Under the pieces are notes generated by a model. It was not told where the DNA came from. It worked only from the letters and a program-made list of their open reading frames with translations, and ran no database searches. A DNA stretch of 64,000 bases from Oscillospiraceae bacterium (GTDB taxonomy: Bacteria; Bacillota; Clostridia; TANB77; CAG-508), in the NCBI GenBank assembly GCA_009785865.1, contig WQVL01000001.1, positions 58,383 through 122,382 of the forward strand. The letters are read 5' to 3'. Made by a program: the position numbers and the translations under genes. This document shows, one piece after another, positions 12,284-61,467 of the stretch; positions within the stretch are counted from its first letter, which is position 1; every line of letters begins with the position of its first letter.

Positions 12284-12323
12284 AACTTATTTCTGCGCAT
12301 CAAAGATACTAGAACTAAGAAAA
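12284..12323 (+). repeat. Copy A of a 40-bp dispersed hairpin repeat (aacttatttctgcgcatcaaagatactagaactaagaaaa)
   Basis: Near-identical to 32334-32373 and 61428-61467. Confidence 0.6.
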
Positions 12324-12369
12324 TTATATAACAACCTTGTGCAATATGCAACAGTAAAGGTTTCAGTAA

Positions 12370-13148
12370 TTACGATCCTAATTTAAATCCAATTAACAGA
12401 CAAATTAAGAATAAAAGAATGGAAATAGCGCCTTCCATCGTCAAACTAAATCCAGGATATAAAACAAAGAGGGAGCCTAGGATGAAACCGATAATCGCAA
12501 AATAAGTATGAGATTTTACATACTTAAATAAAAAGTGTATTAATACCAAGCAAAGCAAAGAACCAAAGATTAAGCCGGTTCCCATAGGAATTAAAATAGA
12601 AAAATTGAGAGTTGCAATAGCTGCTAAATATGTTTCGTAAATTCCAAAAAGCATTAAAATAACGGTTTGGCTAACTCCAGGAATTACTATACCTGCTGAC
12701 ATCACAAACCCGAGTAGAAAGTAAGTAACCGGAGGCTAAAAGATGCAGAACACATATTAGAAAAATGTTCTAGTGTAGCTAAATATATACTAAGTGAAAG
12801 AGTGACTATTAAGCACATAATATGAGAAATAGAGATTTCAGTAATCTCACTTTTTTTAATTACAAGAGGTAAGGAACCTAAAATAAGTCCCATAAATGCA
12901 AAGCTTGTTGGAATATTGAAATTAACAAATACAAATTTTAATATATTACTGAATATAAGGATACCTACAAAAGCGCCAAAAAGTATGGGGAACAAAAACT
13001 TAGTGTTACCTTTAATGTCTTTAAAAAAATTCAAAATAGAATCAACTAGTTTTTCATAAATTCCGAAAGCCACACAGAAAACACCGCTACTAATACCAGG
13101 AAGTATTGCTCCTGAGCCAATTAGAATACCAGTAATAAAATTCTTCAT
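12370..13148 (-). CDS. DUF368-family membrane protein (candidate undecaprenyl-phosphate translocase, duplicated halves); hops at 12731 and 12712 (plus-strand coordinates)
   Basis: Minus-strand ORFs 12702-13148 and 12370-12705 join: ...SASFSL[G]YLLST[G]FVMSAGIVIPGVSQTV...; both skipped Cs belong to in-frame CGG on the minus strand. Confidence 0.7.
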
Positions 13149-13256
13149 ACAAAATCACCTAATTAATTTATATGAAGAATTTTATGGACCATGCACTTTT
13201 CTTTTTTCGCAACATATAATCTCATATATATGAAAATGGAAAGGTGAGGTGCGTGG

Positions 13257-13963
13257 ATGCTAGCATTATACATGTCAGGTTTTTTGGCTTTCTTAAGTAC
13301 AGCTGTTTTTGTTGTGGGGTATGTATCAAATAACAGTTTGTTTCCTGAACCACTTACTCTGGAAGAAGAAAGTGAATGCTTAGAAAGATATATGCGGAGG
13401 AGATGAAGAAGCAAGGAACATACTAATAGAGAGAAATTTAAGACTAGTAGCACACATATGCAAAAAATATAATGTTAGTAATGTGGATGCAGATGATTTA
13501 ATTTCTATAGGAACAATAGGATTAATAAAAGGAATAAATACATTTAAGGTAGATAAGAATGTTAGGCTTTCTACGTACGTCGCGAGATGTGTGGATAACG
13601 AGGTTTTGATGTTTCTAAGAAGCAATAAGAAAACGGGCTCAGAAGTATACTTAAATGAACCTATAGGAAAAGATAGAGATGATAATGAAATTTCTTTAAT
13701 AGATGTATTGGTAAATGATGAAAAAAACATTGAAGATGAAATAGATTTGAAGATGAGGATAAAAAGACTTTATGAAGGGATGAAAGACATATTAAAAGGT
13801 AGAGAACGAACAATATTAGAATTAAGATTTGGACTTCGGTGGCGAAAAAGAGAAAACGCAGAATCAAATAGCAGAAATGATGGGGATTAGCAGAAGCTAT
13901 GTAAGTAGAATAGAGAAGAAAGCAATAAACAAATTAAACGAAAAATTAGCAGAAGAATTGTAA
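13257..13963 (+). CDS. sigK: Sporulation sigma factor, pro-sigma-K-like (membrane pro-sequence + sigma-70 regions 2-4); hops at 13395 and 13837
   Basis: [46 protein letters not shown][G][50 protein letters not shown]...ELRFGL[G][40 protein letters not shown]; resembles B. subtilis pro-SigK. Confidence 0.8.
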
Positions 13964-13967
13964 TACC

Positions 13968-13996
13968 TCTTGACGCATCATTCCGTTTGCGGTATA
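13968..13996 (+). promoter_or_regulatory. Sigma-A-type promoter TTGACG-17-TATAAT inside an inverted repeat (cctcttga...tcaagagg), upstream of fic
   Basis: ttgacgcatcattccgtttgcggtataat. Confidence 0.5.
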
Positions 13997-14018
13997 ATAT
14001 ATCAAGAGGTGAAATTTT

Positions 14019-58966: not shown

Positions 58967-59011
58967 AAGAGCAATAAAAACGCCCATAAAACTGGGCGTT
59001 TTTATTGAGGA

Positions 59012-59977
59012 TCAATTTCCTTGTGCAAGCCACTCGTAAAAGCAGGATATAATGGGGTCTGGCCAGTCGCTATAGAATTTGTGACGACCAATCATAATGT
59101 AGTCGACTATTCCTGAGCGTTCCCATGCCCCGCGTGGATTTTGCTGCCTTGTAACTTCAGGGTTGAAGAAGAAGAGGGCTCCGTTTGAGGGGTCTTCTCC
59201 GTTTAGTGCTGCCATAACAGCTTCTCTGACAGAGTCTGTGACCATGTCGTCTGTTATAAGCGTTACTCCAAGGAAGACTTGTCCATTTCTTACAGGAGAA
59301 AATCCCCATGGACGATTGAATACACCGTAGAATCCAAAACCAAACTCTGATGAGTTTGCATGGTATCTGTTAATAAAAACAGCAGCTACAGCTACTTGCC
59401 CTCGGAAAGGTTCGCCTCCAGCTTCTCCCATAACTAATTGTTTCAGAAGTCTCAATTGCCGAGGCGTAAGAGACATTCTTATAAAGTGTAGGAGATCGCA
59501 TTGAGGTTCTGGAATTGTTTCAGGAACAACTTCATAAGTACATGGTTCTTCCACTAAGTCGCATTCGTCGGAAATCACATAGTAGTTATCTGCATTAGCA
59601 TATTCGCCTATATAGATATACTCGTCTCCAGCGACATATACCTTTTTGTCTTCAAGAGAAGGCAAAGGTGGTTTGTCGATTGATGGAGGTTCGACTACAA
59701 TGGATTCCGAAGGTGCTTCTGCTGCATATATTGATGTACCAATAAATAGTTCTTCTTCACCTGATGAGAAAAAGCCTACTATTCCTGTAATCGCAAATAC
59801 GATTAAACGTATTATAACCCACATTAGAAATATGAGGAATAATACGCGATGCCAATATATTTTACGCCGTGGCGGTTTTTGTTGCTGCTTTCTCTTACCT
59901 TTTCTTACCGGAACATTAGTCCGTTTATGAGAAGGAGGAGTCGCAGTCTTTTTTGTGTAAGCAGCTTTATTATGCAT
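59012..59977 (-). CDS. SleB/CwlJ-family cell-wall hydrolase (cassette i); in-frame CGG = Arg (LTPRQL, PPRRK)
   Basis: GEAGGEPFRGQVAVAAVFINR hydrolase-2 motif; GC-richer; bidirectional terminator 58974-59001. Confidence 0.55.
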   Translation of the reverse strand: MHNKAAYTKKTATPPSHKRTNVPVRKGKRKQQQKPPRRKIYWHRVLFLIFLMWVIIRLIVFAITGIVGFFSSGEEELFIGTSIYAAEAPSESIVVEPPSIDKPPLPSLEDKKVYVAGDEYIYIGEYANADNYYVISDECDLVEEPCTYEVVPETIPEPQCDLLHFIRMSLTPRQLRLLKQLVMGEAGGEPFRGQVAVAAVFINRYHANSSEFGFGFYGVFNRPWGFSPVRNGQVFLGVTLITDDMVTDSVREAVMAALNGEDPSNGALFFFNPEVTRQQNPRGAWERSGIVDYIMIGRHKFYSDWPDPIISCFYEWLAQGN

Positions 59978-60226
59978 AAATCCTCCTAAGTTTTTTTTGT
60001 TTTGCCAAGAGGCAAAACAAGTTGAGAAGCAATAGAGCTTCTACATATATTTTACCATAAAATACAAAAATAGTCAAAAATCCAAAGAATGCAAAAGTAC
60101 AGCAGTAAAAGGAGTTAAAGGAGATTTATAAAAACTACCCGAAGTGTCAACTGACACTACGGGTAGTTTTTTCTTTTTCAAATATATAATGATTTTTTAG
60201 AAGATATTTAATTTCTTTTTAGTTTC

Positions 60227-61033
60227 TTATACTGGTTTAACCATTCCTGATTTAATAAGCGGAGCAGCGGCAGCTTCATCCATGATTAAGTCTGCATCTT
60301 GCATTAATTGCATAAAAGAAATTGGTGCTTGTGGGTCAATGTATCCACTTACAGCTTTTTCAACTGCAGTAGCTTTCTTAGGTCCAAATGCATATATCAT
60401 AGCTTTTTTTGCTTTAAACATAAGTCCAAGTCCAATAGTAAGGGCATGATCAGGGAAGTTACCATCTGGATAATCAAAAGCATTTGCTGATTTTGTGTTA
60501 TCAGATAATGTTTCTCTGTGACACTTTGTTTGAAGAGAAGGAGCAGCTTCGTTAAAAGCTAAGTGACCTTCTTCACCAGTGCCTCCGAAGAGAAGCTCTA
60601 AGTTTTCTGTATCTATATTATTTTCATATCTTTCACATTCGGCTTCAGGATCTTCGGCCTTACCATTGAAAATATCATAACTGTTTTTATCTATAGCGTC
60701 TATAATGTGGTGTTTAGTAAAGTCTTGATACTTTGTACATCCTTCATATTCATCCATATTTCTAAAGTTAACATATTGAAAAGAAACATTTCCAAAATTA
60801 TATTCATCAGAACAAATTCTATAAGTTGGAATTGGAGAATTCCCTGTAGGTATTATCATAGTTATTGGTTTTTGATTCTCATGAGCTTTTTTTGCTAACC
60901 CAATTATTATATTGCTTCCTGCTATAGAAGCTTCTTCTTTAGTCCTGTACACATATAGTTTCATTCCTACACTTCCAGGAACTGTACCAACATACGTTGG
61001 TTTTCCATAAATATCTTTATTAAATTCTAACAT
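60227..61033 (-). CDS. nagB: Glucosamine-6-phosphate deaminase/isomerase family (NagB-like)
   Basis: IPTGNSP, NMDEYEG, GHLAFNEAAP motifs; terminator 60133-60176. Confidence 0.75.
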   Translation of the reverse strand: MLEFNKDIYGKPTYVGTVPGSVGMKLYVYRTKEEASIAGSNIIIGLAKKAHENQKPITMIIPTGNSPIPTYRICSDEYNFGNVSFQYVNFRNMDEYEGCTKYQDFTKHHIIDAIDKNSYDIFNGKAEDPEAECERYENNIDTENLELLFGGTGEEGHLAFNEAAPSLQTKCHRETLSDNTKSANAFDYPDGNFPDHALTIGLGLMFKAKKAMIYAFGPKKATAVEKAVSGYIDPQAPISFMQLMQDADLIMDEAAAAPLIKSGMVKPV

Positions 61034-61069
61034 TTTGTCCTCCTTAAATTAGCTGCATTGAGCAGCGAT

Positions 61070-61232
61070 AAGAAGTAGAAGTATATTTTTAAAGTTACAT
61101 AGTTATTGGTTTGTTCTAATATTACTACTAGTTTTTGCCATATAACTTAATGACCGTAACGTGCCATGGAGCATCCGCCGAAAATTCGATAACTCCTTCC
61201 TCGTCAACCCTTGAGTGGGCTCAGGCGCTTTG
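61070..61232 (-). ncRNA. glmS_ribozyme: glmS ribozyme (GlcN6P-dependent self-cleaving riboswitch) in the nagB leader
   Basis: Minus strand reads AGCGCC...TTGACGAGGAAGGAGTTATCGAATTTTCGGCGGATGC, matching the conserved glmS core CGAAUUUUCGGCGGAUGCC; ends about 40 nt upstream of the nagB RBS. Confidence 0.75.
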
Positions 61233-61427
61233 AATTACAACATTAACCTCCTTCCTAATAATAACCTCTACTTTTGTTTATACTGTAATATATTACAACA
61301 AAATTAAAAAAGATGCAAATTTTTTGAAAAAAGTGAAAAAACAAGAAAAACAAGAAAGGTTAAAAAACCTATTGCAAAATGTGAAGATATATAGTAAAAT
61401 ACTAGAAGTTCAAAGTGATACTGGCAT

Positions 61428-61467
61428 AACTTATTTGTACGCATCAAAGATGCTACAACTAAGAAAA
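61428..61467 (+). repeat. Copy C of the 40-bp hairpin repeat, in the rpsO 5' leader
   Basis: aacttatttgtacgcatcaaagatgctacaactaagaaaa; promoter TTGCAA-17-TAAAAT at 61373-61401. Confidence 0.6.

Follow-up and report, generated by a model that had tools for sequence, protein, structure and literature searches.

A small family of ~44-bp palindromic repeats in the intergenic DNA of an Oscillospiraceae genome

Three nearly identical stretches of about 40 bp, each predicted to fold into a hairpin, lie between the genes of a 64,000-nucleotide segment of an Oscillospiraceae genome (contig WQVL01000001.1, positions 58,383 to 122,382; the whole segment is referred to as the window). They raise the question of what kind of element would place the same hairpin beside unrelated genes: a regulatory structure of the transcripts, a binding site in the DNA, or a small repeat which was copied from place to place. 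The original prediction, made from the sequence alone, proposed two options, a protein- or RNase-recognition element and a miniature mobile repeat. The analysis described here establishes that the three stretches are genuine copies of one small repeat family. The favoured explanation of their origin, to which a probability of about 50% is given, is the insertion of a lineage-restricted miniature palindromic repeat of ~44 bp. This claim rests on five or six copies, and its weight is modest.

The copies are located on the + strand of the window at 12280–12323 (copy A, GCACAACTTATTTCTGCGCATCAAAGATACTAGAACTAAGAAAA), 32330–32373 (copy B) and 61424–61467 (copy C). A degenerate 40-mer consensus matches them at 12284–12323, 32334–32373 and 61428–61467 with 1, 2 and 1 mismatches, respectively, and gives no match in 100 dinucleotide shuffles of the sequence, which confirms the three same-orientation copies originally described. 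The three 40-mers differ pairwise at 4–5 positions. A relaxed pattern, in which only the arms and the inner core are fixed, finds A, B and C and no other site in the window, and a direct-repeat finder independently recovers the same family (as D2). When 140 nt around each copy are aligned, the flanks are unrelated and the conserved block is sharply bounded. The unit begins 4 nt further to the left (GCAY) than previously described and ends at the A-run; the consensus of the resulting ~44-bp repeat is GCAYAA-CTTAtTTSTR-c-RCATC-nnn-GATRC-YASAAcTAAG-AAA(A).

A covariance model (R1) was built from five copies, namely A, B, C and two copies found upstream of the gene spoIIID in metagenome contigs (L017 and L018), and was run over the window without filters. 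It returned the three strong copies at 70–76 bits (A, 70.9; B, 69.5; C, 75.8), each with E ~1e-14, and one weaker match. This copy D (53315–53358, − strand; GAATATTTTATCTTTGCACATATAATGCTAGAGATAAAACAATA), absent from the original prediction, reaches 28.2 bits with a rough E of 1e-4 to 4e-4 and is a possible diverged fourth copy of uncertain membership; it carries two compensatory changes in the outer stem. No further copy is present when the search is extended 9.3 kb leftwards and 7.8 kb rightwards beyond the window, and ~81 kb in total holds three strong copies and one weak copy. Half-elements are not enriched in the window. Chance similarity, or an assembly or contaminant artefact, is effectively refuted as the source of the family by the E values and the empty shuffles, and by the unique flanks in which the copies sit in MEGAHIT, Logan and JGI contigs of different projects. 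A, B and C also occur in other assemblies, the ENA contigs L001, L019 and L029 and the Logan contig L030 (copy A was found again in L029 and L030), which were possibly built from the same reads.

The predicted minimum free energy fold of A, B and C is a two-tier hairpin of 14 pairs, in which 4 pairs, a T.C mismatch, 5 pairs, a one-base bulge and 5 pairs lead to a 3-nt loop. The outer and inner stem of the original prediction are thus recovered in all three copies, but only copy C folds clearly better than shuffled sequence. Copy C represents the intact form, with an RNA energy of −11.9 kcal/mol (z −4.0). In copy B, one A.C mismatch and two loop changes, which alter the loop to GTA, are accompanied by −7.4 kcal/mol (z −1.8), and in copy A, one G.T wobble and one C.A mismatch weaken the stem (−5.1 kcal/mol, z −0.6). 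Such stem-weakening changes of A and B resemble those of decaying relics. With DNA parameters the ranking C, B, A is unchanged, and the z-scores of C are −4.6 (+ strand) and −5.2 (− strand). The intact form therefore folds as a single strand of either polarity, with the T.C mismatch and the one-base bulge conserved. On the − strand, both A.C mismatches become G.U pairs and the G.T pair becomes A.C, so neither strand is favoured.

At pair 14-33, copy C carries a G-C pair in place of the C-G pair of A and B; this swap, which the original prediction did not contain, is a true compensatory change. Among the 14 pairs compared over the five copies, 10 are invariant, 1 is compensatory, 1 forms a wobble and 2 are broken. 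The original prediction had asked whether only three copies exist and whether they covary. The weak copy D and the two metagenomic copies enlarge the set, but the covariation is not significant, as 46 of 500 shuffles score equally well.

The evidence on the origin of the element comes from other organisms. A search of JGI metagenomes (241 million records) gave two matches, both in contigs of sample Ga0123355; the sister sample Ga0123357 (IMG 3300009784) comes from the P4 gut segment of Embiratermes neotenicus, a higher termite (PMC7800795). Both copies lie in sense orientation ~15 nt before the Shine-Dalgarno sequence of spoIIID, and the L017 copy is identical to copy C over 40 nt, unpaired positions included. 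Relatives of these organisms provide two empty orthologous sites. First, the leader that holds copy C and the rpsO leader of L026 share the ATTGCAA promoter and a downstream leader hairpin, but L026 has a 46-nt gap where the copy sits; the PNPase of L026 is 79% identical and its rpsO coding sequence 85% identical at the DNA level. Second, the element of L017 and L018 has no counterpart in the spoIIID leader of L022, where the alignment shows a clean gap of 51 nt. The SpoIIID protein of L022 is 87% identical to that of L017, the Shine-Dalgarno region is kept, and L022 and L017 share a sigma-E-like promoter, GAATACAAT (read by eye). Two further relatives, with a PNPase identity of 77–78%, contain no copy in ~37 kb around rpsO-pnp.

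The empty sites indicate that the element is no ancestral part of the rpsO and spoIIID leaders and was added to them as a ready-made unit. They also rule out a part of the autoregulatory leader of S15, the rpsO product, since the L026 leader lacks the element yet retains the promoter and the hairpin. Placement in the window points in the same direction. All copies are outside called genes, except that the first 6 nt of copy B (GCA TAA) form the last codon and the stop of folA, and with ~12% of the window being non-coding, the chance of three copies all landing there is ~0.002. An insertion repeat is accordingly favoured by near-identical, sharply bounded units at unrelated loci, by the empty sites and the non-coding placement, by an intact 'master' form which is common to different organisms with A and B degraded, and by the lack of a variable target duplication. 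Of the two options first proposed, the mobile repeat is the better supported one.

The family appears to be small and previously uncatalogued, and its restriction to one lineage is reflected in the searches. A scan of 185,579 species-representative genomes with the two invariant arms gave 15 matches, all due to chance and without the CATC...GATGC core. Three scans of viral contigs gave none, and blastn of the element against phages and plasmids returned chance matches of 18–27 nt only. P0048 and L020 are also without the element. The nearest PNPase relatives of the window organism are only 79% identical, and SpoIIID homologues are too conserved to single out close relatives. The repeat is therefore regarded as restricted to a small clade of uncultured Oscillospiraceae, with relatives in the termite-gut metagenome series.

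The genes around the copies have the identities first assigned to them, but the term 'intergenic leaders' fits only in part. Copy C is located in a 5′ leader, 23 nt after the −10 hexamer of a promoter-like site (61372–61400, + strand; TTGCAA-17-TAAAAT), which is conserved in L026. It begins ~17 nt past the inferred start site and lies 105 nt before the rpsO ATG. Copy B is at a gene 3′ end, that of folA, and 15 bp separate it from the −35 hexamer of the downstream tRNA-Met promoter, a sigma-70-type consensus site (32389–32417, + strand; TTGACA-17-TATAAT, 12/12 matches), which forms the context of the copy and not a part of the repeat. Copy A is flanked by two − strand genes, with the stop of a split DUF368/PF04018 gene on one side and the nadE start on the other, and is antisense to its neighbours, a point not made before. 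Its A-run overlaps a TTGCAT-17-TATAAT site on the − strand (12351–12323; read by eye), a putative nadE promoter which the promoter scan does not list, its −35 hexamer matching at 3/6 positions only. The leader of an unannotated open reading frame (ORF; 52878–53282), which precedes a Sulfatase-family gene, contains the weak copy D. A promoter with 12/12 consensus matches is present there on the − strand, and copy D starts ~4 nt past its inferred start site.

The closeness of the copies to promoter-like sites (within ~60 bp) would also be expected of a double-stranded DNA operator. In this explanation, the element is an imperfect ~34 bp palindrome bound by a lineage-specific dimeric regulator or a roadblock protein, with repression expected wherever the start site falls at the element or precedes it (A, C, D and spoIIID). 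The overlap of copy A with the promoter-like site seen by eye and the palindromic symmetry, which the symmetric C-G/G-C swap preserves, are consistent with such a role. The geometry is, however, inconsistent, with the element upstream of the −35 hexamer at B and downstream of the start site elsewhere. The 34-bp palindromic core is embedded in a 44-bp block with asymmetric tails (5′ GCAYAA, 3′ AAAA), an asymmetric bulge and a T.C mismatch in all copies, none of which is needed by a symmetric operator. Operators are not usually seen as clean insertions of 46–51 bp, and among the regulator motifs known to us there is none that the element resembles. An operator is thus considered unlikely.

The common orientation of the strong copies introduces another possibility. 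Across the whole window the GC skew stays positive, which marks the + strand as the leading one, and the three strong copies are all oriented with it whatever the direction of the genes, as at copy A. This would be expected of a polar chromosomal site related to the replication fork or to segregation, analogous to Ter/RTP, with its orientation tied to the direction of replication. Three copies in one orientation have a probability of 0.25, the weak copy D is on the other strand, and the skew does not change sign in the window. The empty sites in relatives show that the copies are not conserved chromosomal landmarks, and such a function is highly improbable. RTP/Ter sites known to us show only a loose resemblance to the element, at GTACAAAT.

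The same set of positions gives more substance to a cis-regulatory RNA of the host. Four of the six copies (C, L017, L018 and D) are sense-oriented and 5′-proximal, beginning ~+4 to +17 from the inferred start sites of promoter-like sites, and the hairpin folds as an independent module within both the rpsO and the spoIIID leaders. In this explanation, the leader hairpin is bound by an RNA-binding protein or a ribonuclease, e.g., as an RNase Y/RNase III guide or as a stabiliser, and would control rpsO, spoIIID and other genes through mRNA stability or translation. The origin by insertion would then be incidental, and the regulation could also be an added layer on the insertion of a repeat. The identity of the sequence across loci and organisms, including unpaired positions, is in line with this function. 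The element also resembles the 5′-leader stem-loops of Firmicutes that act as mRNA stabilisers or RNase guides, since most copies form a stand-alone sense hairpin near the 5′ end of a leader. Those stem-loops are gene-specific and not a repeated 44-nt sequence, and in copy C and at spoIIID the distance of ~20 nt between the hairpin and the inferred 5′ end is too great for 5′-end protection of the classical type.

The conservation at spoIIID also speaks for such a host function. The spoIIID coding sequences of L017 and L018 share 81% identity, with differences at 18 of 41 third codon positions (44%). The element differs at 2 of 44 positions, and the 11 nt directly upstream of it differ at 5. 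The search pattern forced 21 of the 44 element positions to match, and the conservation test used the other 23. At the third-position rate, two or fewer differences in these 23 positions have a probability of 3e-4 to 7e-4, which rises to 0.13 for a neutral rate of only 20%. The spoIIID copy is thus far better kept than third codon positions. In L018 (nucleotides 1–300), the spoIIID frame is broken after ...GISKSTVH (at about nucleotide 200) and followed by unrelated DNA encoding other ORFs; either the metagenome contig is chimeric or spoIIID is interrupted by an intervening element.

Several observations do not fit a cis-regulatory RNA. Copy A is antisense to both neighbours, copy B is at a 3′ end upstream of a promoter, and both carry A.C mismatches in the + strand RNA and fold no better than shuffled sequences. 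The covariation analysis gives it no significant support, the neighbouring genes have no common function, and the orthologous leaders of relatives work without the element. No Rfam 15 family reaches its gathering score in the window, and none overlaps the element at E≤10 in the region of copy C, in L017 or in L018. The protein- or RNase-recognition option of the original prediction is therefore strengthened by the sense copies past predicted promoters and by the spoIIID conservation, and weakened by the antisense copy A, the broken stems of A and B and the covariation result. On balance, a host regulatory RNA is the main rival of the insertion repeat, but it is less probable and is put forward here only tentatively. 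A bolder version joins both lines of thought: the element would be a portable cis-regulatory module, a 44-nt leader hairpin or DNA palindrome served by a lineage-specific trans-acting factor, which was copied into several leaders, those of spoIIID and rpsO among them, and is under purifying selection. This combination is regarded as rather doubtful.

How the insertion repeat would have spread can be considered by comparison with known systems. The closest likeness is to the repetitive extragenic palindromic (REP) elements and REPINs mobilised by REP-associated tyrosine transposases (RAYTs). These are short (20–40 bp), imperfect palindromes, extragenic and interspersed at unrelated loci, present or absent between relatives, without a variable target-site duplication and with a conserved stem irregularity, and many REPs are transcribed as RNA hairpins. 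Most REPs are defined by an unpaired GTAG or CGTC tetranucleotide at one end, and the survey that describes them does not mention Firmicutes or Clostridia (PMC3733652). The element has no such tag and is for this reason not filed as a REP; some copies contain GTAG, but only within the stem or loop and without conservation. REPs also occur in tens to hundreds of copies per genome, with a cognate RAYT flanked by the repeat; the copies described here are singlets and not inverted pairs or clusters of the kind formed by bacterial interspersed mosaic elements, their number appears low, and the genes called in the 81 kb include no member of the Y1_Tnp family.

Another likeness is to the subterminal hairpins of IS200/IS605 elements and to palindrome-associated transposable elements, in which imperfect hairpins with extrahelical or mismatched bases act as single-stranded DNA. 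A replication strand bias is expected of IS200/IS605, and all three strong copies are oriented with the leading strand. The differences are the lack of tnpA/tnpB nearby, the single hairpin in place of a left-end/right-end pair, and a target tetranucleotide that is not definable as conserved from 5 copies. Miniature inverted-repeat transposable elements (MITEs), such as the pneumococcal RUP, BOX and SPRITE, the Bacillus bcr repeats and the Correia elements of Neisseria, usually have a length of 80–500 bp. Like the element, they are lineage-restricted intergenic insertions in non-coding DNA with inverted-repeat ends, often in leaders where they alter transcripts. In the element, which is only 44 bp long, the whole unit is one hairpin, and not two terminal repeats around a core. 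A classical MITE was thus rejected: the element is too short, and although its arms are inverted repeats, its flanks have no variable direct duplication (the AA on both sides belongs to the conserved unit).

By analogy with REP/RAYT and IS200/IS605, the insertion repeat may have been copied through a single-stranded hairpin recognised by an enzyme acting in trans. The ready-made unit would have been inserted into intergenic DNA, mostly just downstream of promoters. Intact copies in leaders would then be transcribed as a self-contained hairpin of the 5′ untranslated region, which the host may tolerate or have co-opted, and this would explain the conservation of the spoIIID copy.

A number of points weigh against an insertion repeat. 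The called genes of the ~81 kb surrounding the copies include no transposase of any kind, which is weak evidence. The end tag of most REPs is absent and the copies do not form inverted pairs. The copy number looks low, with 3–4 copies in 81 kb and none in the 17 kb flanking the window. The metagenome records hold only two matches, and it can be argued from their common locus that the copy number is low in those organisms as well. In order to catch ORFs called across other copies, the open frames of the element were translated, concatenated and compared with 5.8 billion predicted proteins, none of which scored. Finally, the conservation test implies that the spoIIID copy is not passively decaying, and that host-level selection, homogenisation among copies or repeated insertion at the same site is involved. 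The family itself is of a familiar kind.

Other identities were considered and rejected. An intrinsic terminator requires a G+C-rich stem and a U-run; what follows the stem is AAGAAAA (+ strand) or TTATGC (− strand), without a T-run on either strand, and the scans list no terminator-like site at any copy, in agreement with the view that the element is not a terminator. Rfam 15 families, including the S15 leader, preQ1 and Clostridiales motifs, give no covariance-model match, and the similarity of AACUAAG to the preQ1-I riboswitch is superficial. Positions 32343–32359 of copy B read ATTTCTAC-ACATC-GTAGAT, like the 3′ hairpin of Cas12a repeats; this likeness comes from the private loop substitutions of B and is judged coincidental. 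A CRISPR repeat of the Cas12a type is excluded, as the copies are 20 and 29 kb apart with no tandem array and the GTAGAT half is found in B only. Among the motifs known to us, promoters of alternative sigma factors (sigma E/K/F/G/54) do not fit in their spacings, and the sigma-E-like promoter lies upstream of the element and is kept in the empty site. Neither the operators of SpoIIID, Spo0A, CodY, SinR and other regulators nor dif/Xer, attC and parS sites, as far as they are known to us, fit the element.

Some further features of the window were observed in addition to the repeat. A full-length glmS ribozyme (61091–61240, − strand; 83 bits) is located 58 nt upstream of a NagB-family gene (60227–61033, − strand), and not of glmS. 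The gene product is glucosamine-6-phosphate deaminase-like (PF01182; TIGR00502 nagB at 155 bits, below the model cutoff), and cleavage of a nagB-like mRNA triggered by glucosamine 6-phosphate would make sense if the enzyme runs in the biosynthetic direction. A second Glucosamine_iso gene is present in L023 (6870–7613, − strand). Three 34-nt segments (36107–36140, 46497–46530 and 60049–60082) are 76–85% alike (ATTATACCATAA..AAAAATCAAA). They lie upstream of − strand genes and, read in that direction, have the appearance of extended −10 promoters (TTGAtt-17-TGgTATAAT); a resemblance among promoters is more probable than a repeat family.

Duplicated gene ends are found at two places. The last 70 nt of a sigK-like gene (13893–13962) are repeated 1143 bp downstream (15036–15105) with 87% identity, and partly recur 1016 bp further on (16073–16104). 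These repeats bracket a frameshifted HTH-Fic gene (14019–14949) and an unannotated gene of 264 aa on the − strand, an arrangement which looks like small cassettes integrated at the sigK 3′ end, each restoring the gene end. The same pattern is seen in a 173-nt direct repeat with 81% identity (45661–45833 and 46598–46770, 937 bp apart), which overlaps the 3′ end of an 863-aa gene (43174–45765) and brackets a 181-aa gene on the − strand without a family match. Frameshifts split recJ (321–2032), relA/spoT (2151–4266), the DUF368 gene (12370–13148), the sigK-like gene (13257–13963) and an AMP-binding gene (27981–29865), and in L023, Lactamase_B and SpoIIP are split as well. The splits are identical in the gene calls of MEGAHIT and Logan contigs, for which reads are possibly shared, and are thus not an error of a single assembly. 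They suggest pseudogenisation or genome decay in this Oscillospiraceae metagenome-assembled genome.

The meaning of the repeat depends on which explanation holds. REP-like elements are, to our knowledge, poorly documented in Clostridia, and if the element is mobile, it would represent a previously unrecorded family of miniature palindromic insertion repeats in this class. The host genome looks rich in disrupted genes, and the repeat could thus mark genome dynamics in termite-gut symbionts. If the constraint at spoIIID reflects a host function, the family would be an example of a copy-and-paste element creating regulatory wiring. If the element is a portable module, a sporulation regulator and a ribosomal protein gene of termite-gut Oscillospiraceae would be wired into one new post-transcriptional circuit.

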